From positions 96,001 to 160,000 of IMG/VR virus record IMGVR_UViG_3300035182_000466: a stretch of 64,000 nt of DNA; one strand, given 5' to 3'. Source of the stretch: a virus. Positions 3,748-48,056 of this stretch are shown here, one piece after another (the stretch's first letter is position 1; each line of letters starts with the position of its first letter). Made by a program: the position numbers and the translations under genes. Under the pieces are notes generated by a model. It worked only from the letters and a program-made list of their open reading frames with translations, did not search any database and was not told the DNA's origin.

Positions 3748-3758
3748 CTGGAGACATT

Positions 3759-5237: not shown

Positions 5238-6166
5238 GTTTTATTTTAAATCCTTATACTTTTCAAACCGTGGCTCCTGAACCTTATTTAGTTTTAGATG
5301 TAACCAATATTACAGATGTTAGTTGTACTTTAAATTTTAACTTATACAATTTTTCTTCTCCTGTAACTTATACAATTTTAAGAGGCTCTGAAATATTAGC
5401 TCAAAATTATTCAGGAACATCGTTTAATGTAACGGAAAGCACTGCAGGATTAACTGTAAATTATACTATAGTGGCGTATAGTGGCTCCTTAGAAAAAGCT
5501 ACAACAAATAAAACTGTATCGTATGTTAAGACATGGGCTCAAGTATTTAATGACTGGAGAAGATTCTCTCATAATACTACTACTGAAAATCAACCTGCTA
5601 GTGCTACAGAAATATCTAGTTGGACCTATTCTTCTTCTACTAATAGTTTAAGTTGTCCAATTAATAGTTTAACTTATCTAGGATTAGTAAGCAATGAATT
5701 ATATACTTCTTATATACATAAAGCCCGGCTTACTTCTACAGCTTCCGATGATGACTTAATAGGTGTTATTATATCTTTTGCTGTAGACGGAAACGGAAGA
5801 GAGCATACATTATCTGCAGTCAGGACAAGAGGAGGTTTACAACCACGATGGGGTATTTATAAAAACTATAGAAGATCAGATCAGATACTTCTTATTGATG
5901 GCAACTCTAAAATAACTTCTCAGACTGGAGGATGGAATGCAGTATCTACAGGTACTACGGTTAAAATAACGAAGACAGACAATCTTATTGATGCACGTTG
6001 TTCTGTCTTTAATAGTACTTCTGTGCTATCTAGCTCCTCATTATTGCTAGACTTGTCTGCGGATCCAAACTTGTCTATTTTTAGGCAACCATGTGCATAT
6101 GGATATTCTGTATTTTCACAACCTAATACTACATACTCTAATATAGTTTTCTCTTATTCAGAATAA
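5234..6166 (+). CDS. Fn3 + lectin-like receptor-binding protein (paralog of 2809-3747)
   Basis: shares VKTWAQV, RFSH.T, DDD, EHTLSAVR blocks with 2809-3747; overlaps upstream fibre stop. Confidence 0.6.
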   Translation: MSFILNPYTFQTVAPEPYLVLDVTNITDVSCTLNFNLYNFSSPVTYTILRGSEILAQNYSGTSFNVTESTAGLTVNYTIVAYSGSLEKATTNKTVSYVKTWAQVFNDWRRFSHNTTTENQPASATEISSWTYSSSTNSLSCPINSLTYLGLVSNELYTSYIHKARLTSTASDDDLIGVIISFAVDGNGREHTLSAVRTRGGLQPRWGIYKNYRRSDQILLIDGNSKITSQTGGWNAVSTGTTVKITKTDNLIDARCSVFNSTSVLSSSSLLLDLSADPNLSIFRQPCAYGYSVFSQPNTTYSNIVFSYSE

Positions 6167-9989: not shown

Positions 9990-11843
9990 ATGATGATAAG
10001 AAAACCTGTAGACTTAAGTACAGTCGTTCCAAATTTTTCAGATTTTGTTGCAGCTTTACAGCAAGATCTTAGAGCACGAGACTCTTGGAAGGACCTTGTT
10101 GATGGTAGTACCGGAGAAACCTTAATAGAACATAATGCTGCTATTGGGACATTTCTACAGCAATCTTTAGAGACTGCCTTTAAAGAGTGTTTTACAGATA
10201 CAGCCTCCAGAGATAGTTCTATTTATGCAATAACTAGAATGTTGGGTATTAGAGTATCCAGAAAATTACCTGGAGTGCAAAGTTGTAACATTCAAAGATC
10301 CAATATGCTTAACTTGCCTATAAGTAATTCATTGGTTATTCCAGAATTTTCACAGTTTACTGTTGGTGATGATATTCCTTTTTATAATAGATCTACCTTG
10401 AACTTTGTAGAATCTAGTGCAACATTAAATAATGTTCTTTTATATCAAGGTAAAATTTATACTAAAAAGTATGTAAGCTCTGGAGAACCATTTCAGAGAA
10501 TAATAATTCAATCATCCTCACCAATGTCTATATCAGATATAGATATAATTGTTTATGTTGGAGATGAAAAATGGACTGTCGTTTATGATGGTTTATGGAA
10601 TTATGGAATAGATGATAAAGTTGTAGCAGATTCTACTTTAGGTACTGGTGACGTTATTCTTCAGTTTGGAAATGGCTATAATGGAGCATTACCTGCAACT
10701 AATCAAGATATAACCGTACAGTATGTAGAGACTTATGGTGCAAAATTAAGTATGATAGGTTCAGGTGCAAACGTTCAATTAAATAATCAACTTAATGGAT
10801 ACTCTATATCTGGTAATATTATACGACTACCAGATGTTACCCAAATTTTTACTACCTTAGGTGGTTTGAGTTTAACACTAAGTAGTTTAACTAATCCTAC
10901 TCCAGTAGTTTATTTACCTTCTGGAAATAGTTGGGACATAACTAATGTTGGTTTTCAATTAGAAGAGAGTAATGGAGGACTTGCTTTAATAACAGGAGTA
11001 AATGGAAATGAAGCAACCTTATCTGTAGTGTCTCCTTTTACGACAAAAAATTTATCTGCTGGATCCTGGTTTATGTCAGTACCAACTACGGGTCAAGATG
11101 AAAAACCTAGTTATTATTATAAGGTTCTATCACCTAACATGAGCAAGGCAATGGGAAGAGCTGTTACTACTCAAGACCACTCTGCTGTTATAATGCAATA
11201 CAGCGGAATAAGTGATGTTTTGGTAAGAACAGAAAAAGATATAATAAAAGCTTTGACGCAAAAAATACAGAAAAGTGCAGAGGTTATAGCTAGAGAACAG
11301 TCTCTCAATATTTATAACGGTGTGGATTACTATGAAATAGTTCCAGATATACATCCTGCACTTCAAAATGTGATATGGGTTTCATTTTTAACATCTAGTG
11401 GATTAAGTTTTAATTCACTTCAGAATACCGAATTTTTAAACTGGTTTAGATCTAAGCAATTTGATGGAACTACTATTAAACTTCAGGTTCCTACTAAAAA
11501 CATGGTAGATTTATCAATTTCTTTATATTGCAATTCTGGAAAAGATCTTCTGGTAGCACAATCATTGGCAGAGACTGCAATAAGAAAGATGTTTGCAACA
11601 GACAAGCCTATGTTGAGCAAAAAGATTGTAATGAATGATATTTATGATACTTTAAGTAATAGCCTTGATGACTTTTTAGATTATTCTTCTATAGAGGCTA
11701 AGTTAGATGGAGTAGCAACCTTTGAGTTAGTTCCAAAGAATGCAGCTATAGATGACTTCGGTTTTCCTGTACCACCTGGATACTTATATTTGCAGAATTT
11801 ATCTATAACAGCCAAAACTACAGATAGAAGAAGTAAAAGGTAG
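9990..11843 (+). CDS. baseplate wedge protein (T4 gp6 / baseplate J-like)
   Basis: TASRDSSIYAITRMLG, LQFGNGYNGALP, RAVTTQDH motifs; follows gp25. Confidence 0.85.
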   Translation: MMIRKPVDLSTVVPNFSDFVAALQQDLRARDSWKDLVDGSTGETLIEHNAAIGTFLQQSLETAFKECFTDTASRDSSIYAITRMLGIRVSRKLPGVQSCNIQRSNMLNLPISNSLVIPEFSQFTVGDDIPFYNRSTLNFVESSATLNNVLLYQGKIYTKKYVSSGEPFQRIIIQSSSPMSISDIDIIVYVGDEKWTVVYDGLWNYGIDDKVVADSTLGTGDVILQFGNGYNGALPATNQDITVQYVETYGAKLSMIGSGANVQLNNQLNGYSISGNIIRLPDVTQIFTTLGGLSLTLSSLTNPTPVVYLPSGNSWDITNVGFQLEESNGGLALITGVNGNEATLSVVSPFTTKNLSAGSWFMSVPTTGQDEKPSYYYKVLSPNMSKAMGRAVTTQDHSAVIMQYSGISDVLVRTEKDIIKALTQKIQKSAEVIAREQSLNIYNGVDYYEIVPDIHPALQNVIWVSFLTSSGLSFNSLQNTEFLNWFRSKQFDGTTIKLQVPTKNMVDLSISLYCNSGKDLLVAQSLAETAIRKMFATDKPMLSKKIVMNDIYDTLSNSLDDFLDYSSIEAKLDGVATFELVPKNAAIDDFGFPVPPGYLYLQNLSITAKTTDRRSKR

Positions 11844-11849
11844 GATGTT

Positions 11850-14018
11850 ATGATTCCGACTAAAGCTAGCAATTGGGAATATATCTATTTAGATACTAAT
11901 ACTAACTTGTATGTTCCACATTACTATAACATAACTGATAGAGTAATGTTTGAAGATAATGAGTACATAGCTCAAGTAAGTCATTATGCTACTAGTTCTT
12001 TCACGCAAGACTACTTAAATGGATATTGGAAACGTTGGAATCTTATAAAGACTAGAGAATGGCTTCCAGGAACAATTTATGCATCAGGAGATAAAATTAA
12101 GTATGGTCATATAACATATATATGTAAATATGGTCATTTATCTCAAGACTTATTTAGTAAAGATCTTAGTGTAAATTTAGATAACTTAAACTTCGATTTT
12201 TTATATAAGAGAAATGATTATAACAAAGTTTCAAAATCTTTTCCTTGGGCAGGCATAAAAGTATATACCAAAGATGAATTAGTAATAGATAGAGATATAA
12301 CATATAAGTGTTTACAAGATCACACAGTCAACACTCTTGCTGACATATATTCAACTAGACCTTTATATGGTGTAAATTGGAAAAGCTATTGGACTTTTAC
12401 TATTGAAGAACCTAAAGATTTAAACACTCGTTGGGCGCAAGGTCGTATCTTTAATATTAATGATCTGGTAGAAAATAATGGTAAGTTATATCTTTGTAAG
12501 AGCGCCTATAATGGATTATCTCCTGAGTATATAGATAATAATGAACCTGGAATGGGTTCTACTTGGAAAGATTTTTGGGATGAATTTGTACTATGGGATG
12601 TAGAACTAACCAGATGTGATTATGTCAACTGGATGAGTGATGTACCATTTCTTCGTGATTATTTAGAAGTTATTGATCTATTGCAAATAACTAATATAGA
12701 TCATCCAATAGTCAAATTGACAAAATTGAGATCATTAGATACAGAAACAGAGCAGGAGATATTAAAACTAACCACTAGCTTTTTAGGTTTTTCTTTCCTA
12801 GCCGAGTCTTCTTTAATAGATCCATCCTCATATTATCAATACATAAATTATTTGTCTATGTATAAGAGTGAGTCTGGAACTGAATCTTACTTAAAATTTT
12901 TAAACTTTATAGTAAGACATGATTTAGATATACCTTCAAACGATACTCCTCTATCTCAGTATATAGATAAAACTACAAAAGTTCCACTTTGGAAAATTAA
13001 AGAACTATATACTCATAATTATAAATCTTTTTGGACTAAAGAAGAAGTTATTTGTAAGTTAGGACTGAGCAAAAAATACTTTAAAACTACTTTCTTTAGA
13101 TCTAATGGACAAACAGTATATAATATGTTTGAAACAGTTGAATATATGGGTTGGGTTTGGAGTAGTCTTGTTGATAATAATGAAGACTTACCTACTTTAA
13201 CTTCTCCTTATTGGACCAGAGTTTCTGCTCTACCTGAATCTGAATTTGTAGATAGTTCATTACTTTCAAATTTTGATGATAGTGAGGTTTTGTATTTAAA
13301 TTTTCCTATGACATTTAGAGGAACTTGGTTCAAGCTAGAGTCTTATTATTTGAATGATACAGTAATATATAATGGTAAAATATGGAACTGTATTAAAGCT
13401 GGTGCTAAAGGATATATACCTTATGATGGAAGTTCTTACTGGAGTAAGGTTTCAGATATAAATCTTTTTGAAGTGTATAATAGTTATAAAACATACTATG
13501 TAGATGATAAAGTAATGTACAACAATGAAATTTGGCAGTGTACTAAAGCCAGAATAAAAGGTCAAGAACCATCTGACTCCAGTAGTTCTTGGAACAAGCT
13601 CTCTGACTCCAGTTCTGTAGCTAGTTCTGAATTTAAGAATTATGGTTATTATAGAACCAATAGAGTATATTTATATAGATCTGATGATATGCGTAAGATG
13701 GGTTCTGACTTAGAAAAGTATCCTGAATATGCAGGTATAACTAAAATATTTTATGAATTATCAATTGCAGCTAAAGTAATTTATATAAAGGAGATTGGAT
13801 ATGATTATGTATTATCTAACTTACCAAGACTTGTTCAGATAAATCCAGATAATAGTGAATTTGAAGAAGCTCACTATATACCATTTATTTGTAATAAAAA
13901 AATTACATATCCTACACCTGTAAGAGTAGGCAATTGGGTACCAGATGACCTTAGATCTTGTGTAACTTGTCCACAAAAATTATTTACACCTAATATTACC
14001 GAAAGTCAACAACTGTAA
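11850..14018 (+). CDS. baseplate wedge (gp7/tail protein I-like) with carbohydrate-binding-module-like repeats
   Basis: repeated W..G..Y..D.V.Y.G..Y.C (CBM5/12-like) units around a core with YKSESGTE; position after gp6-like gene. Confidence 0.6.
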   Translation: MIPTKASNWEYIYLDTNTNLYVPHYYNITDRVMFEDNEYIAQVSHYATSSFTQDYLNGYWKRWNLIKTREWLPGTIYASGDKIKYGHITYICKYGHLSQDLFSKDLSVNLDNLNFDFLYKRNDYNKVSKSFPWAGIKVYTKDELVIDRDITYKCLQDHTVNTLADIYSTRPLYGVNWKSYWTFTIEEPKDLNTRWAQGRIFNINDLVENNGKLYLCKSAYNGLSPEYIDNNEPGMGSTWKDFWDEFVLWDVELTRCDYVNWMSDVPFLRDYLEVIDLLQITNIDHPIVKLTKLRSLDTETEQEILKLTTSFLGFSFLAESSLIDPSSYYQYINYLSMYKSESGTESYLKFLNFIVRHDLDIPSNDTPLSQYIDKTTKVPLWKIKELYTHNYKSFWTKEEVICKLGLSKKYFKTTFFRSNGQTVYNMFETVEYMGWVWSSLVDNNEDLPTLTSPYWTRVSALPESEFVDSSLLSNFDDSEVLYLNFPMTFRGTWFKLESYYLNDTVIYNGKIWNCIKAGAKGYIPYDGSSYWSKVSDINLFEVYNSYKTYYVDDKVMYNNEIWQCTKARIKGQEPSDSSSSWNKLSDSSSVASSEFKNYGYYRTNRVYLYRSDDMRKMGSDLEKYPEYAGITKIFYELSIAAKVIYIKEIGYDYVLSNLPRLVQINPDNSEFEEAHYIPFICNKKITYPTPVRVGNWVPDDLRSCVTCPQKLFTPNITESQQL

Positions 14019-14048: not shown

Positions 14049-16613
14049 ATGGCTACAATGCAAATAACTAAAGTCGGTTATGAGCAAATAACCGATGCAC
14101 TACAAAGTGGTTATACTTTAAAGATTACTAAAGTTAAATTTGGTACTGGATCAGATTATGTTCCAACAGCAGGAGATGTTGAACTTCATGGTCATATTCT
14201 ATATGAAGGCCCAATTAGTAATGTGGATGTAGTAAATGATGATATAATTGATTTTCTTTGTATTTGCCCTGAGAACTTAGGTGTAGACACAGTCACTATT
14301 GGTGAAGTTGGATTATATATAGAAAATACTGATGGAACCGATACTCTATTTGCATTAGCTTGTTATCCTTATCCTTTCAGTAAAGCACCAAATATGCGGT
14401 ATAAAACACACTGCTTAGTTTTGAATCCATATATAAGCAATGCAGTAGATTTAACTTTAACTTGGACTATGAGTTTACCACGAGTTAATTATTATGGAGA
14501 TTTACCTAATCCGGAAAGAACTGGAGATAATGCTTATATAGTAAACCACGGATTTACAGATAGTGGTGTTTTAAAACCTTCTTTAGTTACACGATACGCA
14601 ATGTCTGATACAGGCCCACTAGCGTGGGGGCTCTTAAATGGAGATTTATATTATGATGGCTATGTTACTCCAGTTGAAGGGGATCCAGCCAGTTTTAAAT
14701 TAGCTGGTTTACCATTGTCTAACTTTCCTGCCATAAATATTAAATTTGCTTTTGTTTATGTTTGTGAAGGTACAGGAAGAACTCAGTGTAGAGCATTATC
14801 TTATAATGCATCACTAGATTGCTTTACTACTTTGTATGAAGACTTTTCCTTAACTGTTAAGGGATCTGGAACTCCTTCCTATGAAGGAGCTTGTAATACA
14901 GGTAACACTGCAGGTACTGTGTTGCATATAACTAATCTAGATTCAAGCTCAAGAGTATTGATTTGGACAGCGGTAAGGATGGAAGCTACTGGTCTTGTTT
15001 TTAGAGGTCGTTGGGATGCAGCAGCAGGATATCCATCTAGTCCTATTCCAGGATCATACTGGGTAGTATCTGGTAATGGTATTATAAATGGAACCTGTTA
15101 TCAAGTTGGAGACTGGATGGTATTTTCTGGTGATGAACAGTGGGATAAGATTGATAACACTGAACTACCTTACTTACTATATCGTGGTGATTGGGATGCT
15201 TCTACCGGTCAAGCTCCACCGCCACAACCAATACAATATTATTGGCAGAATATTCGTCAAGGACATTATTGGGTAATAAGTACTGCTGGAGTTATAGCAG
15301 GAGTATGGTTTGATGTTGATGATTGGATAGTATGGAATGGAACAAAGTGGCAAAAAGTAGATAATAAAGGTGGTCTAAAATTTAGAGGGTATCATGCTAT
15401 AGTATCTGATAATCATGTGCCTACTGTTTTAACTGATGGTGACTATTGGATTGTGTCCCAAAAAGGAACTATTAATGGTATTCGTTATGATGTTAAAGAT
15501 ATCCTAGTATGGACAGGTTCAACCTTTATGCGGTTGATAAATCAAGAAGGCTTAGTTTATCAAGGTCTTTATGACCCAAGCATAACTGGTGAATATCCAG
15601 TGCCTTTCAAATCTGGTGATCTTTGGATTGTTAAAAAGAATGGTGAAGTAACTAATCAAGATGATCCTACAGTTAAAGATAACTTATATGTAGATGATTT
15701 TTTAGTAGCTATTCCAACTACTAGTACTACTTTTACCTGTGATACTAATAGTAATAGTACCATTTTAAATACTACTGGTAATATGCGTTGGAAAGTAATT
15801 TCAGCAGGAGGATTAACCTATCGTGGTACTCATGATGCATCTACTGGTATTATGCCAATTCCCCTGCATAAAGGAGACTATTGGGTTATTACTAATCCAG
15901 GTTATTTAAATGGTGTATATTATGAAACAAATGATTGGATTACATTTAATGGATCTTCTTTTAATAAAGTTAGTAATAGAGAAGGTCTTAAATATCAAGG
16001 ACTGTGGGAAATTGGTACCAACGGATCTGTACCTCCAACTCATCCAGTAGAAGGTGACTTTTGGATTGTTAGCTCTCCTGGATCTGTACAAGGCACTGGA
16101 TATAGTATAGGTGATTGGTTAGTTTGGACAAATTCTGGATGGACTAACGTTGATAATAGACCTGGATTCTATTATAGAGGAGACTGGAATCCAACTTCAG
16201 GAACAAATCCAGTTGCATTAAAAGAAGGCGATTTGTATCGTATTAACGCTGCTGGTACATTCAATGGCGAGCATGTAGCTCCTGGAGACTTCATTGTTTG
16301 GACAACAGCAGGATGGCTCCTGATCTTAGGAACTCTTGACCGTATAGATATTCCTAGATATAACATAACCACTAATGATTACATGCTCCGTGAGTATGAA
16401 TATGCAGATGCTTCTACTGGTAAAGTATATAACTCAGCTAAAAACCTTAAGATAGGATTTGCATTAGAGATTTTATTTAAAGATAGAACTAATCCAGTGT
16501 ATGTACCATATCTTGAACAATTGAACGAATTAGAGTTTTGTGGTTGTACTTGTACTTGTACTTGCCAATGTACGGCACCTTGTAACTGTTGTAAAGGCGC
16601 AGGTCCAGTTTAA
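14049..16613 (+). CDS. tail fibre: collar-type N-terminus, seven ~60-aa repeats, Cys-rich C-terminal tail
   Basis: ITKVG..KITKVKFG..IGEVGLY..LFALA tail-collar-fibre N-domain; seven G.Y.G.WD..GD.W.V..G..GDW.VW repeats; ends CGCTCTCTCQCTAPCNCCKGAGPV. Confidence 0.8.
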   Translation: MATMQITKVGYEQITDALQSGYTLKITKVKFGTGSDYVPTAGDVELHGHILYEGPISNVDVVNDDIIDFLCICPENLGVDTVTIGEVGLYIENTDGTDTLFALACYPYPFSKAPNMRYKTHCLVLNPYISNAVDLTLTWTMSLPRVNYYGDLPNPERTGDNAYIVNHGFTDSGVLKPSLVTRYAMSDTGPLAWGLLNGDLYYDGYVTPVEGDPASFKLAGLPLSNFPAINIKFAFVYVCEGTGRTQCRALSYNASLDCFTTLYEDFSLTVKGSGTPSYEGACNTGNTAGTVLHITNLDSSSRVLIWTAVRMEATGLVFRGRWDAAAGYPSSPIPGSYWVVSGNGIINGTCYQVGDWMVFSGDEQWDKIDNTELPYLLYRGDWDASTGQAPPPQPIQYYWQNIRQGHYWVISTAGVIAGVWFDVDDWIVWNGTKWQKVDNKGGLKFRGYHAIVSDNHVPTVLTDGDYWIVSQKGTINGIRYDVKDILVWTGSTFMRLINQEGLVYQGLYDPSITGEYPVPFKSGDLWIVKKNGEVTNQDDPTVKDNLYVDDFLVAIPTTSTTFTCDTNSNSTILNTTGNMRWKVISAGGLTYRGTHDASTGIMPIPLHKGDYWVITNPGYLNGVYYETNDWITFNGSSFNKVSNREGLKYQGLWEIGTNGSVPPTHPVEGDFWIVSSPGSVQGTGYSIGDWLVWTNSGWTNVDNRPGFYYRGDWNPTSGTNPVALKEGDLYRINAAGTFNGEHVAPGDFIVWTTAGWLLILGTLDRIDIPRYNITTNDYMLREYEYADASTGKVYNSAKNLKIGFALEILFKDRTNPVYVPYLEQLNELEFCGCTCTCTCQCTAPCNCCKGAGPV

Positions 16614-16630
16614 ATTAAAGTGAGGATAAT

Positions 16631-17368
16631 ATGTCAAGAGTATATTTTTGTGTTAAAAACAGTTATTCTTCTACCACTCCTAAACCTGCGAATATTACGT
16701 CTGTAGGAGATGTAACTATAACAGTATCTAATTCAAACATAATAATAAATCAACCCGATGTTCTTATAGACTCAGATAGAGATATACATTTAATAGTTGC
16801 TTCAGATTTTACATTTAATACTCCTGGTCTAGTTCAGACTTCGCATGTTTTTGGTTCAAAGGATTATTTTGATAAAGTACAGGTTTATTATTATAATAAT
16901 ACCTATTTCTATTATTTTGAAAGTGTAGAACATTACTGTGCCGTATATGAGCGTCACTTTTCTACAGTTTATTTTAGACATGATCCTACTAAAATATTCT
17001 GTGAAGTAACATCTAATGCGATAGCTATTCAAGGAGCAGGTAAATTTGTTTTTCTAATCAGAGGTCTTTTTGTTTCAGAAAATGTAGTTACCTTGAAAAT
17101 GCAAGATGAAGAAAAAACTGAAATACCAATATCTTTAATATCAGATAGTAATACACAAACTACGTTAAACTCTATAAATACTTCTTTCAATACGTTAGAA
17201 AATGGTACTATAGTAGATTCCTTTATTCAAAGTCGTGGATTCTTTTTAGAGCTAGACCCCGATGTTTTAAAAGGTGAAGGTTATCTAATAATAGAGAATG
17301 AATTACCTACAAGTTTTGCAATAACCGGTGTATCTAAGACTAGAAGTAAAATGATGTTCTTTATTTAA
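16631..17368 (+). CDS. hypothetical protein between tail fibre and radical SAM cluster
   Basis: 245-aa ORF with RBS (gagg); no recognisable motif. Confidence 0.6.
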   Translation: MSRVYFCVKNSYSSTTPKPANITSVGDVTITVSNSNIIINQPDVLIDSDRDIHLIVASDFTFNTPGLVQTSHVFGSKDYFDKVQVYYYNNTYFYYFESVEHYCAVYERHFSTVYFRHDPTKIFCEVTSNAIAIQGAGKFVFLIRGLFVSENVVTLKMQDEEKTEIPISLISDSNTQTTLNSINTSFNTLENGTIVDSFIQSRGFFLELDPDVLKGEGYLIIENELPTSFAITGVSKTRSKMMFFI

Positions 17369-17402
17369 AATAATAACTGATTACTGGTAAAGGAAAAATA
17401 AA

Positions 17403-18767
17403 ATGATAACTAAACATGATTTAGAAGATGATATTTTAACCTTTTCTAAAGATAGGTCTTTTAGGTATTTTAAAACAAAAGGCGGATTATTAGTAAAGAG
17501 CTTTCTTAATACAAATAGATACTATATAGAAAGTGCTGATGATGATTTACCTATTGCCTCTGTTTGTTTTGGAGAAGAAATATTTACTAATGATGAATTA
17601 GATCAACTATATGATATTATAAATCAAGATAAAAAACAGTTACGCCAAGATATATTTAGTTTAGGAATATTCAATTCTACCTGTAATGTTAGTTGTGAAT
17701 ATTGTACTAATGGCGATAGAACTAAAATGCTCCAGAAGCTACCAAGTATAGAACAACTACAAGAGGTCTTTAATACTTATAACATCAAATATGTAAGTGT
17801 AGCTGGAGGAGAACCATTAGTAGAATGGCCCCAACTAAAAAATATTCTGACATTTTTAGATGAACAACCTGGTATAAAAACAATGGAAATCTTATCAAAT
17901 GGAAGATTACTTAAGCCTGAGATACTTGAGTTTATATCTAGTTTAACACGAGACGTTAAGTTATTTTTAACTGTTACTACAAAAGAAGACTCAAAAGATC
18001 ACATGAATATACAAGAGCTTTATGAGTTATATCCGAAGTTGGTAGGACACCCTGTTGAAATAAATATTGTTATAGACCACTATAAATTTGATGTAGATAG
18101 ATTTTTATCTTTAATTGTAGAAATGGTTAAAAAAGGAAATTTTGGAGTAACCTTAAATGCAATACGCAGAGAAGACGCAACAGAAGAAGGACTATTGCAA
18201 TTAATAAATAATGTAAAAGCAATGATCCGAAGTCCTCATATTCGTGATTTGTCTTGCCCCGAAGACGATAATCCAACAACACCTTTTTATTATGCAACCG
18301 GAAGTTGTAGTAGTGGGATGATTTGTGCTTCATCTAAAGGTTATTCCTTTTGTTTGGCCTCTATGCCACAATATATAGAACAAACTGTAGAAGGTGTAAA
18401 GAATATAAGATATATGCAGTCTAAGCATGGATGTGAATCTTGTGATGCTTATTTTGATGATGTCTTATGTAAGAATAATATTTTCTCTGGTAGTTGTTAT
18501 AAACTAGAAAGATTCAACTGTTTAACTTGTCCTAATTTATGCCAATGCCAATATCAGAAGTGTTATTATCTTTCAGTGAAAAAAATAACAAATCCAGTTG
18601 CAGATTATAATAGAGACTTAAGATGTATAGCTTATGTTTTAATTTTCAATCTTATTGACTATATAAAACATCAACATATAGATTATTCTGATAGTAATAG
18701 TGTGTATAAAATAGACTCAAATAAAATACCGGAGAAATTAGTAAATGAATATTTTTCTACTAAATAA
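17403..18767 (+). CDS. radical SAM protein with Cys-rich SPASM-like C-terminus
   Basis: CNVSCEYC (CxxxCxxC), GGEP, SNG; many C-terminal Cys (CESC, CLTC..CQC..C). Confidence 0.9.
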   Translation: MITKHDLEDDILTFSKDRSFRYFKTKGGLLVKSFLNTNRYYIESADDDLPIASVCFGEEIFTNDELDQLYDIINQDKKQLRQDIFSLGIFNSTCNVSCEYCTNGDRTKMLQKLPSIEQLQEVFNTYNIKYVSVAGGEPLVEWPQLKNILTFLDEQPGIKTMEILSNGRLLKPEILEFISSLTRDVKLFLTVTTKEDSKDHMNIQELYELYPKLVGHPVEINIVIDHYKFDVDRFLSLIVEMVKKGNFGVTLNAIRREDATEEGLLQLINNVKAMIRSPHIRDLSCPEDDNPTTPFYYATGSCSSGMICASSKGYSFCLASMPQYIEQTVEGVKNIRYMQSKHGCESCDAYFDDVLCKNNIFSGSCYKLERFNCLTCPNLCQCQYQKCYYLSVKKITNPVADYNRDLRCIAYVLIFNLIDYIKHQHIDYSDSNSVYKIDSNKIPEKLVNEYFSTK

Positions 18768-19863
18768 ACATCACACTTGCTACCTATCAAATTCTGAGTT
18801 AAACTTTCTTAGGTTCTGTGCAGAGAAGCTTAAAGGTCTTGAATATGTAGAACAACCAGAGCTAGCAGATTTAATTGTTTATTCCGGATGTTCTGTTTCT
18901 GACGATTATATCATGAGGAATAATAAAGAGCTGGATAAACTTATAGCGCTATATCCAGAAAAGAAATTTATGTTATTTGGATGTGCTGCACCTTATGGTG
19001 AGCACTCAAATGTAATTAGTATTGTACATCTAGAACATTCTAAATTAGATGATCTCTTTAATTTACCTTCTGGTTCAATAAAGCAACTTCACTCTTATTA
19101 TTTCACCTATGAGAAAATTTTTGAAGATCAGAAAGCTATTTTTATATCTAGTGGTTGTGCTAGTAATTGTACTTATTGTAATATTAAGTTATCTAGACCT
19201 AAATTAAAATCAATGCCTTTAGAAGATATTCTTGAAAGAGTGAATCAGTTTTATGCAACTAATCATCATTATGTCTTATGCTCAGATGACTGTGGTTCAT
19301 ATGGATTAGATATAGGGACTAATTTTGCAGTTTTACTAGAAACTTTAGTTTTAAATTTTCCTGATATACTTATAAATATAAAGTGGGTTAATCCACAATG
19401 GTTTATAAAGTATTATGATGTTATAAAGAAATATGTGGATACAGGTAATGTTATAGGTATAGAATGTCCTATTCAGTCAGGATCAGATAGAATATTAAAG
19501 TTAATGAATCGTCCATATACTGTAGAAGAAGTCATTGATAAATGGACCAAGATAAAAGGAAAGTTACTATCTTCTAAAGGTACAGTCATAGTAAACTTTC
19601 CTGGAGAAACTTGGGAAGAATTTTTAGCTTCTATGTCTTTACGTAAACATTATGAAATTTTTATAGTATATATTTTCAAACTAAACAAAAATACAGCTAG
19701 TGCAAATCTTCCAGATAGACGAACAGAGGAGGATGCTAAGAGACGACTTGAATATCTAAAAGAACATTATCCAGACATATACTATGGTGGAGATCTTATA
19801 GATAATAACTTAGACCGCTGTATAGACAAACCTTATATGGTAGATAACTTAGAATATGATTGA
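18745..19863 (+). CDS. MiaB/RimO-like radical SAM methylthiotransferase lacking TRAM domain
   Basis: N-domain Cys (TCYLSNSE, SGCSV, FGC), GCASNCTYC, PIQSGSDRILKLMNRPYT, FPGET. Confidence 0.85.
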   Translation: MNIFLLNKHHTCYLSNSELNFLRFCAEKLKGLEYVEQPELADLIVYSGCSVSDDYIMRNNKELDKLIALYPEKKFMLFGCAAPYGEHSNVISIVHLEHSKLDDLFNLPSGSIKQLHSYYFTYEKIFEDQKAIFISSGCASNCTYCNIKLSRPKLKSMPLEDILERVNQFYATNHHYVLCSDDCGSYGLDIGTNFAVLLETLVLNFPDILINIKWVNPQWFIKYYDVIKKYVDTGNVIGIECPIQSGSDRILKLMNRPYTVEEVIDKWTKIKGKLLSSKGTVIVNFPGETWEEFLASMSLRKHYEIFIVYIFKLNKNTASANLPDRRTEEDAKRRLEYLKEHYPDIYYGGDLIDNNLDRCIDKPYMVDNLEYD

Positions 19864-21076
19864 TACTTTATCCATAAAAATGGTAGATATTCCAGGTGTT
19901 CTTGAATATCATTCTTCGACGCATTCTTTCAATTATTGTCCTGAAGTTATACAGACTGAAAGAATAAAATTTGAAGATAGAAATGAAATACAACAAGACT
20001 TCTCGAAAGAATATCTTAATAAACAAAAAGAAGAATCAGATAAAGTACCAATTATAGGTACAGTAACCATTACTAATGAATGTAACATGGGATGTTCTTT
20101 TTGTTATGCTCATAAAAATGAGCAACTAGGAAAAATAAATTTAGACTATCTTATACGATTAAAGGAAAAGCTTCCTAAAGAATGTTTTGATCATCTTATT
20201 TTATCTGGTGGTGAACCATTATTATATTTTGATACGGTTAAGTCAGTAAGAAAGTTATACTCAAAGGTTGTAATATATACTAATGGTAGTCTTTTAACAG
20301 AAGATATTATTAAATGGTGTATAGATACAAAGACATGGTTATACATAACGTTAGATTTTGATATTCCAGATTTTATTGGTCATCACTCTAGTCCTGTAAG
20401 AGATTTACTAGAAAAGTACATTTATAAGTATCCTAAATTGTTAGATATAATATCTTTTGGGACAGTTCTTCCAATAGAAGAACTTATAAATTTGCCTAAG
20501 CTTAGGCAACAACAAAAACCTTTTGAGTCAGGTATATGGAGACTATACAATTTTTTAGATCCAAAAGATAAAAATTATGTAGTTAGTTCTGAAGGTTTTG
20601 ATCTTGAAATGAGTAATATAGAAACTGGTTCTATTAGTCTTCAAGAATCAATATTTTTTAGATATTTGAACTATGTACAAACAGCTTCTACTAATGAATA
20701 CAACTATAGTTGTTGTGGAAATTCATTAGCCCTAACACCCAGTGGAAACTTAACTATCTGTAATGAGTTATCAAGTTTACCTGAGTCTCGTTTAAAAAAT
20801 ACAAAAGTATGGTCAATAGATTCATTAGATTTAGAAGAAGTTAAACAAGAACAATTAAGAGTAGGTAAATACGGTATTAAAAGTTTTTGTGGTTCATGTA
20901 TTATGAAATATTTTTGTTCAGGATTGTGTTGGCAGAAAAAGGGTAATCTTAAACATCAATGTCAAATGGCACGCTTCGGAATAGCATATAGTATGTATTA
21001 TAAGTTTAACTATTTGAATACTAATTCAATACTAAATCCGAATACAAAGTTATCAGAAATCTTAAGAGATAGGTAA
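19856..21076 (+). CDS. radical SAM/SPASM protein
   Basis: CNMGCSFC, GGEP, TNG; SPASM C..G.LTIC..CGSCIMKYFCSGLC..C. Confidence 0.9.
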   Translation: MIDTLSIKMVDIPGVLEYHSSTHSFNYCPEVIQTERIKFEDRNEIQQDFSKEYLNKQKEESDKVPIIGTVTITNECNMGCSFCYAHKNEQLGKINLDYLIRLKEKLPKECFDHLILSGGEPLLYFDTVKSVRKLYSKVVIYTNGSLLTEDIIKWCIDTKTWLYITLDFDIPDFIGHHSSPVRDLLEKYIYKYPKLLDIISFGTVLPIEELINLPKLRQQQKPFESGIWRLYNFLDPKDKNYVVSSEGFDLEMSNIETGSISLQESIFFRYLNYVQTASTNEYNYSCCGNSLALTPSGNLTICNELSSLPESRLKNTKVWSIDSLDLEEVKQEQLRVGKYGIKSFCGSCIMKYFCSGLCWQKKGNLKHQCQMARFGIAYSMYYKFNYLNTNSILNPNTKLSEILRDR

Positions 21077-21083
21077 TATATTT

Positions 21084-22352
21084 ATGTCTTCATCAAAAAT
21101 TTTAGTAAATGCTATTGGTATAAAAGATAATTCTACGGGATTTGCTATCTTATATGTTCCAGAATTTCATTTATTTTTAAAGTCTGAAATACGTCAAAAT
21201 AAACCTGTAGAATTTTATACTAATTATTCAATGCCTGTACTTTGTACTCATCAAAATGAGATATATGAAGAGTACAATAAACTAGAAACTCAGGCAGTAA
21301 ATAAAATTCCTAACATAGGTTATGTAATAGTTAATAATGTCTGTAATATGAATTGTACCTTTTGTTATGCTGCGGCTAATACTAATCATAAAAGAGTAGA
21401 CATTTCTGATCTAGAGCACCTGTCTAAGATATTGCCCAAAAATTCGTTTAGAAAAGTAATTATTTCTGGAGGAGAACCTTTATTAGACTTTGATCTTGTA
21501 AAACAAATAAGAACATTTTTTGATGAAATGACTATAAACTCTAATGGAATGCTTCTTACAGAAGATATAGCTAATTGGTTAGTAGAAACAAAGACAAAAA
21601 TGTATATCGCCTTAGATTATGAGATTAAAGATTTTGAAGGACATGACTTTAATGCTAAAGCGCATGTAGAAAGTATAATCGCTAAAGTTCCAGAAGTTCT
21701 TCCATTTATAGAAGTCGCTGTAACTTACCCTAGTGATAAACTAGATGAGTTAAAAGATATTAGAACTCAAAATCTTCCATTTGAAAAAGAACTGACCCAC
21801 GATTTTAATTACATTAAAGGAAAGGATCCTTTAGTTTTAACTAAATCTATATTTGAAAAAGAAATAGAAAGAATAGAAAGAGATGAAATTTCATTACAAG
21901 AATCTATCTTTCATAAACCTCTTAAATATATACGAAATACTTATAACTGGAGACTTAATATAGAGTCATGCTCTCCAGCCGTACATTTAAATCATCTTGG
22001 AGATTTACATCTATGTCAGGTTAGAGCCTCCAATACAAATAGACCTGAAGAGTATGAGAAAGATGTTATCTGTAAAGCTAAAGATTTTAATTTAGACATA
22101 TATAGACAAAGATCCAACAAAGATAAAAAGATTGGAGTTTGCACAATAGATAAAAATTGTAACTGTAGATGGTTTTGTGGAAATATATGTTGGGCTAATA
22201 TAAAACATAATAAACATAATTGTGAAGTTCTTAAATACTCGTTATTCTATTCTATGTATTTAGTTCATAATTATCTTTCTATGGAAGGTTTTAGTTTATT
22301 AAATTTAGATAGATTTTTCAATTCAAAACTAAAAGGATTGAACTATGTCTGA
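21084..22352 (+). CDS. radical SAM/SPASM protein (paralog of upstream gene)
   Basis: CNMNCTFC, GGEP, SNG; SPASM C..GDLHLC..CNCRWFCGNIC..C; shares ISLQESIF with 19856-21076. Confidence 0.9.
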   Translation: MSSSKILVNAIGIKDNSTGFAILYVPEFHLFLKSEIRQNKPVEFYTNYSMPVLCTHQNEIYEEYNKLETQAVNKIPNIGYVIVNNVCNMNCTFCYAAANTNHKRVDISDLEHLSKILPKNSFRKVIISGGEPLLDFDLVKQIRTFFDEMTINSNGMLLTEDIANWLVETKTKMYIALDYEIKDFEGHDFNAKAHVESIIAKVPEVLPFIEVAVTYPSDKLDELKDIRTQNLPFEKELTHDFNYIKGKDPLVLTKSIFEKEIERIERDEISLQESIFHKPLKYIRNTYNWRLNIESCSPAVHLNHLGDLHLCQVRASNTNRPEEYEKDVICKAKDFNLDIYRQRSNKDKKIGVCTIDKNCNCRWFCGNICWANIKHNKHNCEVLKYSLFYSMYLVHNYLSMEGFSLLNLDRFFNSKLKGLNYV

Positions 22353-25300
22353 TATTCGTCCTGTACTAAGTATTTTAGAAAAACCTGAAACCTTAAATAA
22401 AAGTAAGCAATGTTCTTTTACCTTTAAGTCATCTAAACCTTTGAAATATGTCTGGTGTGTTTTGGATAATAATCCAAGTTTTAAACTATATCCATCAAAA
22501 GATTATCCAGAAGGTGATATTGCTATTTTATCTTTAACCTATGATGATTCTGATGATAGAGTTAAACACGAGCTAACAGTTCAAGCAGTAGATACAGATG
22601 ATAATCTTGAGATATATAAAAATGTAATAGTTTGGACTAATGTTTTTATACCTATACAGTCTACATTAGTAGAACATCCTTCTGATCCAGATTTAGACTT
22701 AGCAAGTTATTTTCTAATTACTACAAATAAAACTGTATTGGGAGTAAGATATTCCTTAAATAATAATCCTTATGTTTTTGTCAAACCTTCAGATAGAGTT
22801 TCTGATAACAAGACAGTAGATATTTCATTATATGATCTATCAGAAAGATCATATACGATAAGATATAAAGCTGTAGATGAATTTGGATTCGAAGAATTAA
22901 CTGAACATGAATTTACTTGGAATAAAGTAGTACGTCCTATTACTACAATAGTAAATATATCTGAAACAAACGATCCAAAAGTAATAGAGTTATCTGTAAA
23001 TAAACAAGTTGCATATATTGAAAGTTATCATTATTACGGTGAAGATAAAGAATCTTTTAGCGAAATTTGTTCAGAAGTAAACTCCTCTGGACAAGAAAGA
23101 TTCTACTTTAGAATACCACAACCTTTTGAAGGTAAAAATGAAGTACAATTTACAGCTGTAGATACTAAAGGTTACAGAGAATTAGAACCCGTTGTTTATA
23201 CTTGGTATGAAGATAAAACAGTTTTATATTCTACCTTTATTGAGACACCAGCAAAAGTATCACAGATTACAGATTCTAAATTTACTATTGTAACTAATAA
23301 ACCAGTCGATCATATAGAATATACTTTAGACGATCAACCGGAGAATAAAATATACCCTTGGCCTGAAGATGTAACTAATAAAACGTTCAAGATAACATTT
23401 ACATCTATGCAAGAAGGGTTTCATAATCTATCTATAAGAGCAGTAGATGGGTCTGGATATTTGGAGGATGAGGCACGTGTTTATTCATGGAAAGTAGAAG
23501 ATCCACCAGTTTCAAATATAATAAAGTACCCAATTAGTCCTAGTACAGAATCAACTGCTACCTTTAAAATTGTTGCTAACAAACCATTGAGTCATGCATT
23601 ATACTCGTTGAACGGATCGTCTTGGAAAGTATTTAATATAGATCCTAATGACTCAACTAAGACAAGTGCAAGTATAACAATATCTAATTTAAAAAATGGC
23701 GATTATACTATACAGATAAAAGCAGTAGATTTATTTGGAGCTGTGGAGAGAGAATCAACTGAAAAATCTTGGAGTGTAGAAGGTATTGAAGTTGTTTATC
23801 CAAATGTAGGATATGGTTCATCTAAAACAATCTTACCAGATGGAGTTACAGAAGCATTTAGATTTCACCCATCTCCAGGTGTATATTTTCCAGAGAGCTT
23901 ACTTGAGTTACCATCTGTTAGATCAATAATATATCCAGATACATTTATTGTAACATTTCCCGAAAAGTTTTCTAATCAAACTTCAGGAGTATTTACATTT
24001 TCATCTACTAGAATTGGAGCAACCTACCAGATTAGTTTAGATGGTTCTGAGTGGAAAGATGTAGGTAATCTATATAAATTTAATGATCTAGTTTTAGGCT
24101 CTCATTTACTTAAAGTTAGATCTATAGATAGAGCTGGGAATATTGATCCATCACCAGCAGAGTATTCTTGGAGTATAGACACTAAAAAACCAGTTTCTAC
24201 CTTTGTAGAAACTCCACCTAATATATCTATCTCACAGGAAGCATCTATAAGAATAGAGGTAGATAAACCAGTTCAGTACGAGTTGTACTCTTTAGATAAT
24301 TCTATATGGTTAAAGTCTTATCCTTTAGAGTCAGATCCAGATAATAGAACGATATTAGTAGAATTATATAATCTAAATTCTGGACCGCATAATTTTAGAG
24401 TAAAGGCTTGTGATATATATGGTAATATAGAAGTACCAGAAAAGTATTATAACTGGTTTGTAAATACAGATAGGACTCCACCTGATACTATTATAACTAC
24501 TATAATTCCTGAATATACTAATAAAGTTAACTGGGATATAGACTTTATGTCACCTAAACTTGGTTGCACTTTTGAAGTAGCTTTAGACGTAACATTATCT
24601 AATACAGATATACGATATGGTGAATGGGTGTCTGCGAAAAGTCCTTATATTCTTTCTGATTTAGCTGATGGACATTATGTGATAAAGGTTAGAGCGATTG
24701 ATCTATTTGGAGATATAGATGTTACACCTGCTCAATTAGCTTGGAATATAGATACAGTTCCACCAAAATTATTTTTTGTTACAAAGCCGACAGGACCAAA
24801 TGGAACATTTGAAGTTGTCTCAAATAAAACAAATTGCAGCTATCATTTTATTTATAATGATAGTGATACAGAAAACGTAGTATACAGTCCTATCATACCA
24901 TATAGCAATTTACCTGAAGGAGTTAATATTGTAAAAATTTATGCTAAAGATATGGCAGGAAATTCTGGAGATGTTATTTCTTATACTTGGACTATTGATT
25001 CAGTAACACCTAATACCTTTATTGATACTTATCCAATAGATAATAGCTCAAGTGGGCAGTTTACTTATCACGCAGATAAACCTAATTGTGTCTTTGAAGT
25101 TACTTTGGACTCAGTTACAAGTTTTAAAGAAAGTCCTTTTACTTTCACTAATTTATCTTCAGGTTTTCATACCTTTTCAGTTAGAGCAAAGGACTTAAAT
25201 GGAAATTTTGATGTTAATCCCAAAACATATACTTGGGAAGTAAAGATTTTAAGTACGATAACTGTTACAGTTTTTAATGCAATTAATGCTAAAGCTATCT

Positions 25301-25920
25301 CAGGTGCACTTGTATCTATAGACACTGGAGAATCTAGTAATACAAATACTTCTGGTGAAGCTAAGTTTACTAGTATAAAGGCAGGACTTAGAACAGTCAC
25401 AATCGCTAAAGATCAATTTGTTACAGAAACCGTAACAGTTACTTTAACTGAAGCTGCGATAGCAATAACTGTTTTATTATCGCCCTCTCTATGGGATGGT
25501 GCCTATCGTGCTGTATTACGTTGGGGTTACAAACCTTCTGACTTAGATATCCATATGTATGTACCATCAGGATCAACTTACATAGACCGTAACTGGGCTA
25601 ATAAAGGAAGTGAAATTTCCACACCATCTGGATGGCTAGACATAGATGATACTGATGGTTATGGTCCAGAAACTGTTACTGCTAAAACTCCAAATATAGG
25701 TATTTATCAAATATGGGTGTACAATTATTCTCAAACACCAGATATAACATCTTCAAATGCTGAAGTTAGTATATACTCAGACCAAGGAAAACAGCGTACT
25801 TATAAAGTACCTTTAAACTTAGGTACAGGATATAAAGCTTGGCATATATGTGATATCGACTGTGTAAACAAAATTATAACTGATGTAAATTTATTAAGAA
25901 CAAATCTACCAAATATATAG
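22345..25920 (+). CDS. large Ig-like repeat virion protein with C-terminal carboxypeptidase-regulatory-like and YfaP/DUF2135-like domains
   Basis: repeated H.(F/L).V.A.D..GN.D..PA.Y.W.ID units; LRWG..DLDIH...DDTDGYGPE motif. Confidence 0.7.
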   Translation: MSDIRPVLSILEKPETLNKSKQCSFTFKSSKPLKYVWCVLDNNPSFKLYPSKDYPEGDIAILSLTYDDSDDRVKHELTVQAVDTDDNLEIYKNVIVWTNVFIPIQSTLVEHPSDPDLDLASYFLITTNKTVLGVRYSLNNNPYVFVKPSDRVSDNKTVDISLYDLSERSYTIRYKAVDEFGFEELTEHEFTWNKVVRPITTIVNISETNDPKVIELSVNKQVAYIESYHYYGEDKESFSEICSEVNSSGQERFYFRIPQPFEGKNEVQFTAVDTKGYRELEPVVYTWYEDKTVLYSTFIETPAKVSQITDSKFTIVTNKPVDHIEYTLDDQPENKIYPWPEDVTNKTFKITFTSMQEGFHNLSIRAVDGSGYLEDEARVYSWKVEDPPVSNIIKYPISPSTESTATFKIVANKPLSHALYSLNGSSWKVFNIDPNDSTKTSASITISNLKNGDYTIQIKAVDLFGAVERESTEKSWSVEGIEVVYPNVGYGSSKTILPDGVTEAFRFHPSPGVYFPESLLELPSVRSIIYPDTFIVTFPEKFSNQTSGVFTFSSTRIGATYQISLDGSEWKDVGNLYKFNDLVLGSHLLKVRSIDRAGNIDPSPAEYSWSIDTKKPVSTFVETPPNISISQEASIRIEVDKPVQYELYSLDNSIWLKSYPLESDPDNRTILVELYNLNSGPHNFRVKACDIYGNIEVPEKYYNWFVNTDRTPPDTIITTIIPEYTNKVNWDIDFMSPKLGCTFEVALDVTLSNTDIRYGEWVSAKSPYILSDLADGHYVIKVRAIDLFGDIDVTPAQLAWNIDTVPPKLFFVTKPTGPNGTFEVVSNKTNCSYHFIYNDSDTENVVYSPIIPYSNLPEGVNIVKIYAKDMAGNSGDVISYTWTIDSVTPNTFIDTYPIDNSSSGQFTYHADKPNCVFEVTLDSVTSFKESPFTFTNLSSGFHTFSVRAKDLNGNFDVNPKTYTWEVKILSTITVTVFNAINAKAISGALVSIDTGESSNTNTSGEAKFTSIKAGLRTVTIAKDQFVTETVTVTLTEAAIAITVLLSPSLWDGAYRAVLRWGYKPSDLDIHMYVPSGSTYIDRNWANKGSEISTPSGWLDIDDTDGYGPETVTAKTPNIGIYQIWVYNYSQTPDITSSNAEVSIYSDQGKQRTYKVPLNLGTGYKAWHICDIDCVNKIITDVNLLRTNLPNI

Positions 25921-25940: not shown

Positions 25941-26159
25941 ATGACAACTATTTTAGATCCTTATTACACTTTATTAAGTCAATATTACAATAATTATGAT
26001 CTATTCATATCTAAGTGTAAAGATAGTGGTTTAACAGTCTTAACCATAGTAGAGTTTAAAGATAAAATAAATACTTTATTTCCTAAAACTAGTAACGTTC
26101 ATAGAACACCTGTTACTCGTTCTCCACGAAGTTGCTGTGGAGGTGGAGCATCTCGTTGA
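25941..26159 (+). CDS. small protein ending RSCCGGGASR
   Basis: 72-aa ORF with RBS gagg. Confidence 0.6.
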   Translation: MTTILDPYYTLLSQYYNNYDLFISKCKDSGLTVLTIVEFKDKINTLFPKTSNVHRTPVTRSPRSCCGGGASR

Positions 26160-47900: not shown

Positions 47901-48056
47901 CGCCGTAATTTCTTTTTTAGGACTAACACTAGCAATTGTTGAAGCTACTCTACTAAACATATCTTCAGGTTTTTCAATTACTTTACCTGTCGCATCTTTA
48001 ATAAGATAGCGTTTCTCAAGTACAGTCCTAGCATTTTGTGTAAGTTCCAGTTTCAT
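44928..48056 (-). CDS. nrdJ: class II (B12-dependent) ribonucleotide reductase, intein-containing
   Basis: [23 protein letters not shown][intein]CGEQPL, TIAPTG, YRDGSR; C-terminal TSCPD-like domain and Zn ribbon. Confidence 0.93.
46296..47252 (-). mobile_element. intein (319 aa) with LAGLIDADG homing endonuclease
   Basis: starts CVTGDT after NP, ends [16 protein letters not shown] before CGEQ; motifs GFYSGDGS and AGLVDSDGS. Confidence 0.9.

Follow-up and report, generated by a model that had tools for sequence, protein, structure and literature searches.

A TRAM-less, methylthiotransferase-like radical SAM enzyme linked to a Cys/Thr-tailed phage fibre, and its probable role as maturase of the fibre tail

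The window analysed here is a stretch of 64,000 nucleotides corresponding to bases 96001–160000 of the 170-kb IMG/VR virus record IMGVR_UViG_3300035182_000466, which comes from a giant phage and is estimated to be 63% complete. At 18745–19863 on the plus strand it contains an uninterrupted open reading frame (ORF) that encodes a protein of 372 amino acids, hereafter P0001. P0001 is a two-cluster radical S-adenosylmethionine (SAM) enzyme of methylthiotransferase (MTTase) architecture that has no TRAM domain, and enzymes of its type are found in conserved linkage with a phage tail fibre ending in a Cys/Thr-rich tail. From sequence comparison, P0001 is probably a dedicated maturase of this tail that forms a carbon–sulfur bond, either as a methylthio group or as a thioether; any assignment of the particular bond is speculative.

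The Pfam Radical_SAM model (PF04055) matches P0001 with an E-value of 5.5e-19 (69.4 bits, cut-off 29.5), and TIGR00089, the model of the MiaB/RimO family, matches with 149.2 bits (E 1.5e-43) over profile positions 25–358 of 429. The Pfam match to UPF0004 is sub-threshold (22 bits versus 27). Alignment to an archaeal e-MtaB, an MtaB and the E. coli enzymes MiaB and RimO puts residues C12, C49 and C80 in the three auxiliary-cluster cysteine columns, and C138, C142 and C145 in the CxxxCxxC triad of the SAM cluster. Across 66 relatives, each of the six cysteines is either invariant or conserved to at least 90%. Two further motifs of the architecture, IQSGSDRILKLMNRPYT at residues 243–259 and FPGET at 285–289, include the conserved residues Q244, R256, P286 and E288. 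The sequence-only reading of this DNA had listed the three N-domain cysteines, the radical SAM triad and the QSGS..L..MNR.YT and FPGET motifs, and all of these are present.

An AlphaFold2 model built on the 66 sequences has a predicted local distance difference test score (pLDDT) of 88.5 and a predicted template modelling score of 0.87, with pLDDT above 90 over most of the radical SAM core. The fold starts at residue 2 with the UPF0004 domain. Comparison by Foldseek and VIA-align returned MtaB, MiaB and RimO as the top matches (E 4e-23 to 2e-17; Z 28–30), followed by the B12-dependent methylase MgmA as the next structural family (VIA Z 21.8). P0001 has no match to the B12-binding domain PF02310 at E ≤ 0.01 and has the three cluster cysteines; its matches to equivalog models of B12-dependent radical SAM enzymes are weak (20–52 bits) and confined to the radical SAM core.

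The absence of TRAM is evident at several levels. The last core helix (residues 328–341) is followed by no more than 31 residues, the final stretch (353–372) is disordered in the model, and there is no C-terminal beta-barrel. When the low-confidence end is trimmed, VIA-align maps residues 1–346 onto residues 18–388 of MiaB and leaves the MiaB TRAM domain unaligned; the TRAM portion of the TIGR00089 profile is likewise unmatched. A search of all six frames of the 170-kb record with the TRAM profile PF01938 gave no match at E ≤ 1, while the same profile was found in 14 of 14 control genomes. As PF01938 is silent in every frame of the record, a split or frameshifted TRAM is ruled out. The earlier observation of a 372-residue protein lacking TRAM is thus upheld by profile coverage, by the structure model, by the alignment with MiaB and by the six-frame search.

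The same reading had spoken of a loss of TRAM, and this part of it does not stand. The residues that follow the CxxxCxxC motif were counted in the 258 best matches to P0001 that are shorter than 700 amino acids and contain the motif, taken from two protein libraries of very large size. Of these matches, about 225 have 210–250 such residues (P0001 has 235), and only about 16 have the 270–290 that are typical of TRAM-bearing enzymes. Because most of the best relatives are TRAM-less and P0001 is placed within an almost wholly TRAM-less group, TRAM-lessness is a trait of a large, deep and uncharacterised MTTase-like branch and not as a loss event in the window phage. P0001 would then never have had TRAM, the domain that docks tRNA or ribosomal protein S12 in the canonical enzymes.

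The profile scores place P0001 well apart from the canonical enzymes. Its 149.2 bits with TIGR00089 compare with a curated cut-off of 251 and with 337–424 bits for canonical controls. On the equivalog models it reaches 90.6 bits for MiaB (TIGR01574, cut-off 355), 99.2 for RimO (TIGR01125, 357), 106.5 for MtaB (TIGR01579, 357) and 109.6 for e-MtaB (TIGR01578, 315), where genuine MTTases scored alongside reach 337–447 bits on their own best models. Trees were calculated from 251 rows with FastTree and from 74 rows with IQ-TREE (LG+C20), and an approximately unbiased (AU) test was made on 36 rows with LG+G4. In both trees, the TRAM-bearing reference MTTases group in a single supported clade to which the phage enzymes do not belong, and P0001 lies far from it within an almost entirely TRAM-less group. 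When the phage enzymes are constrained into the canonical clade, the log-likelihood falls by 47 units and the AU test rejects the constraint (p-AU 0.011). By these analyses P0001 is placed outside the canonical MiaB/RimO/MtaB/e-MtaB clade; branching inside canonical MiaB/RimO, which the sequence-only reading had named as one part of the outcome that would tell against it, was not found. MiaB, MtaB and e-MtaB/CDKAL1, which modify C2 of tRNA A37 (PDB code: 7MJV), share the architecture and motifs of P0001 and are its best structural matches (Z 28–30). However, these enzymes act on tRNA via TRAM, whereas P0001 is TRAM-less, is encoded in a virion operon and scores 91–110 bits against their cut-offs of 315–357.

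Profile annotation with Pfam and PHROG puts the P0001 gene in a plus-strand run of structural genes, and the G+C content is about 31% across the window, cassette included. The virion-structure context claimed earlier is confirmed by the baseplate wedge and tail-fibre proteins that flank the cassette. The features of this region are given below in window coordinates.

9990–11843, plus strand: baseplate wedge protein (phrog_219, E 1.5e-38)
11850–14018, plus strand: tail protein
14049–16613, plus strand: tail fibre of 854 amino acids, the proposed substrate protein (Pfam Phage_tail_fib N-terminal domain; PHROG tail-fibre families)
16539–16613, plus strand: Cys/Thr-rich C-terminal tail of the fibre, CGCTCTCTCQCTAPCNCCKGAGPV, the proposed core sequence (9 Cys in 18 residues)
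16631–17368, plus strand: 245 amino acid protein with no family assignment, a syntenic member of the module
17403–18767, plus strand: radical SAM protein of 454 amino acids with a Cys-rich C-terminal region (Pfam Radical_SAM and Fer4_12; 12 Cys after residue 285)
18745–19863, plus strand: P0001, TRAM-less MTTase-like radical SAM protein of 372 amino acids
18745–19029, plus strand: N-terminal UPF0004-type domain of P0001, approximately residues 1–95, with auxiliary-cluster ligands C12/C49/C80 (Pfam UPF0004 over residues 30–83)
19132–19767, plus strand: radical SAM core of P0001, approximately residues 130–341, with C138/C142/C145, QSGS..MNR.YT and FPGET (Pfam Radical_SAM over residues 133–297)
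19768–19860, plus strand: short C-terminal tail of P0001, residues 342–372, where TRAM would be (last 20 residues predicted disordered)
19856–21076, plus strand: radical SAM protein of 406 amino acids with a SPASM-type motif, CX2CX5CX3C, at residue 345
21084–22352, plus strand: paralogous radical SAM protein of 422 amino acids, present only in the window phage
22345–25920, plus strand: Ig-like/Y_Y_Y repeat protein of 1191 amino acids, the last gene of the module (Pfam Y_Y_Y, Big_13 and Ig_J)

The module consists of a Cys/Thr-tailed fibre, a protein of about 240 amino acids, the P0001-type enzyme, an Ig-repeat protein and another two or three radical SAM enzymes whose C-termini are Cys-rich (SPASM-type). 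The three radical SAM neighbours of P0001 match SPASM/twitch peptide-maturase families weakly in NCBIfam, and the Pfam SPASM model gives no match to the 406 amino acid protein at E ≤ 0.01. The P0001 gene shares 23 bases at its start with the upstream radical SAM gene and 8 bases at its end with the downstream one; all along the row from the first radical SAM gene to the Ig gene, neighbouring genes overlap or come close to abutting. A scan for promoters and terminators found sites no more often than in shuffled sequence, and no plus-strand terminator-like site beyond chance between the module genes. The 245 amino acid protein has no family match in Pfam, NCBIfam or PHROG and nothing similar in the ESM Atlas, and its AlphaFold model has a pLDDT of 44.6. 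The block holds four of the five radical SAM genes of the whole record. The fifth encodes a protein of 327 amino acids (53102–54085, minus strand; phrog_16999 'Fe-S oxidoreductase', E 1e-8) and lies among minus-strand, early-type genes far from the cassette.

A search of 1.8 billion representative proteins identified P0124 and P0133 as the nearest relatives of P0001, with 31–36% identity over aligned columns. The three form a clade (support 92–99 in the Shimodaira–Hasegawa-like approximate likelihood ratio test, SH-aLRT), all retain the six cluster cysteines and are TRAM-less, and Y371 of P0001 is conserved in each. P0124 and P0133 are encoded on short metagenome contigs that are clearly phage, L014 and L015, and in both of these the MTTase-like gene lies directly behind the stop codon of a tailed fibre. 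On L014, the fibre gene is followed by the MTTase-like gene, a gene for a 233 amino acid protein, homologues of the 454 and 406 amino acid radical SAM proteins and an Ig homologue. L015 contains, in the order seen on L014, the end of the fibre gene, the MTTase-like gene, a gene for a 267 amino acid protein and the start of the next radical SAM gene. The window and L014 fibres are 48% identical over 446 amino acids, the 454 and 406 amino acid radical SAM proteins are 31% and 42% identical to their L014 homologues, and the 422 amino acid paralogue shows 32% identity to the one homologue that L014 has of the 406 amino acid gene. The 245 amino acid protein is 20–24% identical to the 233 and 267 amino acid proteins at the corresponding loci. 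L014 and L015 do not have the gene order of the window, so the set has been maintained despite rearrangement.

The fibres end in EFCGCTCTCTCQCTAPCNCCKGAGPV in the window, EYCSCTCTCTGPCNCCDGSGPI in L014 and EYCSCTCTCTSPCDCCDGSGPI in L015. The tail that they have in common, E[FY]C[GS]CTCT..CTxPC[ND]CCxGxGP[VI], is better conserved than any other short element of the module, and approximately 40 residues upstream of it are also conserved across the three fibres. The linkage of a P0001-type enzyme to a tailed fibre is therefore conserved in all three phage loci.

A natural control is provided by G001, a 295-kb phage genome (locus L296; 100% complete) that was the one further IMG/VR relative found in a search with the fibre N-terminus. 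The N-terminus of its fibre is 61% identical to that of the window fibre over 439 amino acids, and its baseplate wedge protein is 47% identical. The G001 fibre, in contrast, has a different, Cys-free C-terminus, and the next gene is small and does not encode an enzyme. No P0001 homologue is present in the whole G001 genome and no homologue of the Ig-repeat protein was found there; its single radical SAM gene is located elsewhere in the genome. Since the window, L014 and L015 have both the tail and the cassette and G001 has neither, the two are present or absent together. The pattern expected of a RiPP (a peptide that is made by the ribosome and modified after translation) system, in which a ribosomal substrate is encoded next to the enzyme and its core is conserved along with it, is seen in the window, L014 and L015 when compared with G001. 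The new protein or peptide substrate put forward in the sequence-only reading thus emerges as the best-supported reading, given the position of P0001 outside the canonical clade, the close relatives beside tailed fibres and the tail-less G001 without the cassette; the premise of TRAM loss from which it had been argued does not.

When positions 14049–25920 of the window are compared with L296, the C-terminal half of the fibre behaves, together with the 245 amino acid gene, the four radical SAM genes and the Ig gene, as a single exchangeable unit, bounded by the conserved fibre N-terminus on one side and by a conserved region running from a small peptide to an NAD ligase on the other. The small peptide was considered separately. 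It is the product of a 72 amino acid ORF (25941–26159, plus strand) that ends SPRSCCGGGASR, and as a peptide ending RSCCGGGASR it was a candidate substrate of the cassette. This was rejected, as a homologue that ends KRSCCGNTKVI is encoded in the cassette-less G001 (L296:15972–16274; pairwise E 2e-9). The ORF appears to be a conserved small gene of the phage lineage rather than a cassette-specific substrate. The G001 homologue of the baseplate wedge protein (G001:C1:153180–155009, minus strand) is matched through one in-frame TGA, for which a sequencing error, a frameshift or recoding is possible.

For the proposed maturation of the fibre tail, the best mechanistic precedent is RimO (TIGR01125; PDB code: 4JC0), the one characterised MTTase with a protein substrate. 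Both enzymes have a UPF0004 domain with three cysteines and a radical SAM core, and their folds correspond with a VIA Z-score of 28.5 and a root-mean-square deviation of 3.8 over 341 residues. They differ in that RimO has TRAM and P0001 none, the identity is 22–23% and P0001 lies outside the canonical clade. In MiaB and RimO, the open site of the auxiliary cluster carries sulfur, as a methylthio group or polysulfide, that is captured by the substrate radical, and the titles of the matched structures agree with this. By homology, C12/C49/C80 of P0001 would bind an auxiliary [4Fe-4S] cluster in which one iron site is open, and C138/C142/C145 would bind the SAM cluster. Maturation would take place in the infected cell, before or during fibre assembly. 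A 5'-deoxyadenosyl radical would take a hydrogen from a tail residue, and the resulting carbon radical would capture a sulfur ligand on the open iron of the auxiliary cluster. Conservatively, this ligand would be a methylthio group, as in the action of RimO on Asp89 of S12. It could alternatively be a cysteine thiolate of the tail itself, giving a thioether, which is an attractive option because the tail offers 7–9 thiols and has no invariant Asp. As P0001 lacks TRAM, docking must come from elsewhere, and the approximately 40 conserved residues upstream of the tail, the 245 amino acid protein and the partner enzymes are candidates for this function.

Two other groups of enzymes offer partial comparisons. 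The SPASM/twitch maturases of sactipeptides, ranthipeptides and SCIFF peptides (CteB, PapB) act on Cys-rich ribosomal peptides encoded adjacent to the enzyme and have an auxiliary cluster whose open site binds a sulfur ligand. In P0001, however, the auxiliary cluster would reside in an N-terminal Rossmann-like domain and not in a C-terminal SPASM domain, and the putative core is joined to an 854 amino acid structural protein in place of a short leader peptide. The class B cobalamin radical SAM methylases (MgmA, and Mmp10, which acts on methyl-coenzyme M reductase) share with P0001 an N-terminal Rossmann-like domain followed by the radical SAM core, and their targets are unactivated carbons in a folded protein. 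As the source of the next-best structural match (MgmA) they are close in fold, but P0001 retains three cluster cysteines and has no Pfam match for B12 binding.

A broader proposition, which we put forward tentatively and hold at somewhat short of even, is that the receptor-facing tip of a phage fibre is matured in the manner of a RiPP. The Cys/Thr core, fused to the C-terminus of the fibre, would be rewritten by the phage set of radical SAM enzymes, with P0001 performing a methylthiolation or thioether formation that is new for its architecture.

Several points weigh against the assignment of P0001 as maturase of the fibre tail. It is synteny that suggests the tail as its substrate, and the three phage loci share ancestry, so that their common arrangement represents retention and not independent association. 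The only invariant residues of the tail other than Cys are Thr, Pro and Gly, and there is no invariant Asp, the residue that RimO targets. No RiPP recognition element (RRE/PqqD-like) was seen in P0001; the candidate partner for this role is the 245 amino acid protein. Metal binding could be all that a Cys-x-Cys tail does on a trimeric fibre, and the enzymes may in that case act elsewhere. Finally, the wider TRAM-less branch appears to be functionally heterogeneous, and membership in it does not predict a peptide substrate.

This heterogeneity is apparent from the genomic neighbourhoods. The closest non-phage relatives of P0001 are encoded in clusters of 3–10 radical SAM genes and not near translation genes, often with another MTTase-like paralogue and a radical SAM protein that has a B12 domain, and sometimes with YcaO or HxsD. 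Some relatives in the wider group are found in sugar-modification clusters with glycosyltransferases and aminotransferases, or in archaeal housekeeping neighbourhoods, and the sister protein P0163 lies in an unrelated PLD/RNase T/TniQ context. Cellular TRAM-less proteins (P0003, P0009 and P0006; loci L009 and L017–L021) resemble P0001 in length (approximately 360–390 amino acids), domain set, radical SAM neighbours and membership of the same larger clade, but in the protein-library searches they are at most 36% identical to it, and neither a tail fibre nor a Cys/Thr tail is encoded close by. To our knowledge no member of the branch has been characterised, and a literature search found none.

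Among the non-phage clusters, several (L009:163–1008; L020:10658–11551; L018, L019, L062) encode a protein of 280–330 amino acids that has no Pfam match and ends ...D[VA]G[IF]DY.M....L.[IV]LKSGYYG[TIY]F; the L019 version is a fusion with a radical SAM domain. This KSGYYG-ending protein may be a substrate or a partner in those clusters. The top non-self matches to P0001, P0122 (1245 amino acids, 214 bits) and P0123 (1019 amino acids, 186 bits), are long fusions that contain an MTTase-like module.

An arrangement similar to that of the window was encountered in a different type of phage. A search of IMG/VR for DNA encoding the pattern C-x-C-T-C-T-C-T gave at least 119 loci, nearly all of them due to chance, and among the matches listed only L157 passed the filters. 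L157 (IMGVR_UViG_3300029286_003688; 2898–6114, minus strand) is on a siphovirus-like contig and encodes a 191 amino acid fibre-like protein ending CCECECTCTCTCTCTCTCTCTCTEQCCSECDCGD. Directly behind this (CT)n-tailed protein are genes for a SPASM-type radical SAM enzyme and then a B12-domain radical SAM enzyme. L157 represents an independently assembled analogue of the window module.

Of the readings that compete with tail maturation by carbon–sulfur bond formation, one that we consider unlikely but that deserves attention is that P0001 acts within the module on another substrate. This could be the 1191 amino acid Ig protein, the 245 amino acid protein, or a small molecule or cofactor that is made by the four radical SAM enzymes and is attached to or used by the fibre. 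The Ig and 245 amino acid proteins are module-specific too, wider relatives occur in clusters with glycosyltransferases and aminotransferases, and the non-phage clusters encode no obvious Cys-rich peptide and instead the protein of about 290 amino acids ending KSGYYGTF. The position of the enzyme gene immediately behind the fibre stop codon in L014 and L015 argues for the tail, as does the tail's place as the best-conserved short element of the module; moreover, no sugar or cofactor genes were found in the module with Pfam, NCBIfam and PHROG profiles.

Somewhat less probable again is that P0001 does act on the fibre tail but transfers no sulfur. The auxiliary cluster would then serve in electron transfer or anchoring, and the reaction could be a C-methylation, an epimerisation or a C–C or C–O cross-link. 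In L157, the equivalent place is held by a B12-domain enzyme, of a class that mostly methylates carbon, and the MTTases and B12-dependent radical SAM enzymes are structural neighbours, as the match to MgmA indicates. The substrate also brings enough thiols of its own that external sulfur may be needless. On the other hand, the three auxiliary-cluster cysteines are strictly kept in the phage copies, and all characterised enzymes with this architecture carry the sulfur that they transfer on the auxiliary cluster, as is established for MiaB and RimO and agrees with the structure titles.

We consider it quite improbable that the Cys/Thr tail is an unmodified metal-binding or disulfide-knotted tip of the trimeric fibre, with the radical SAM cassette, P0001 included, as an unrelated cargo island. 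Fibre tips can bind metal, as do the His-x-His repeats at the tip of T4 gp37, and the module is an insertion or deletion relative to G001. An unrelated island does not account for the tail and cassette coming and going together across the window, L014, L015 and G001, nor for the different (CT)n-tailed fibre-like protein of L157 again abutting a SPASM-type enzyme.

That P0001 is a tRNA or S12 methylthiotransferase, present among structural genes by chance and serving host takeover, is very unlikely: the MiaB/RimO subfamily model is its best family-level match, phages do carry tRNA-modifying genes and one phage record has a full-length mtaB, but the whole window record has no TRAM, the scores are far below the curated cut-offs, P0001 is excluded from the canonical clade, its gene is translationally coupled to those of peptide-maturase-like enzymes, and its presence tracks that of the fibre tail, not that of translation genes.

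The module that contains P0001 appears to be undescribed, as a literature search found no report of a fibre-linked radical SAM module of this kind. Campylobacter phages CP220 and CPt10 have many radical SAM genes, which were described only as possible metabolic genes (PMC2853527). The present analysis provides a concrete candidate substrate, a tail of 20–25 residues, for a member of the large uncharacterised TRAM-less branch. We know of only two established substrate classes for the MTTase architecture, namely tRNA A37 and a single aspartate in ribosomal protein S12. If the proposal is true, this would be the first radical SAM modification of a phage virion protein, and it would open a route into the function of the TRAM-less relatives that multi-radical-SAM clusters contain in their thousands. 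Fibre tips that are chemically cross-linked or decorated with thio groups would, in addition, be a new variable in phage–host recognition and virion stability.

Megablast of the 12-kb module against phage records returned nothing, and tblastn of P0001 against the same records gave only distant matches (23–29% identity), the majority of them MTTases of bacterial type on 'Bacteriophage sp.' fragments that carry no annotation. No relatives were found when IMG/VR was searched with P0001 or with the alignment of the three phage copies. In 185,579 species genomes, the best match to P0001 was 30% identical and came from an Omnitrophota metagenome-assembled genome; no matched locus in these genomes had a fibre or partner genes, so they give no prophage or host clue. 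A search of sequencing runs returned four DNA runs, from sediment and microbial-mat metagenomes that may be the source samples, with no RNA run among the matches listed.

Elsewhere in the window, the large subunit of ribonucleotide reductase (44928–48056, minus strand; 1042 amino acids) is matched by its profile at residues 4–218 and 584–1041. The unmatched insert of about 365 amino acids between these stretches could be an intein or another inserted domain.

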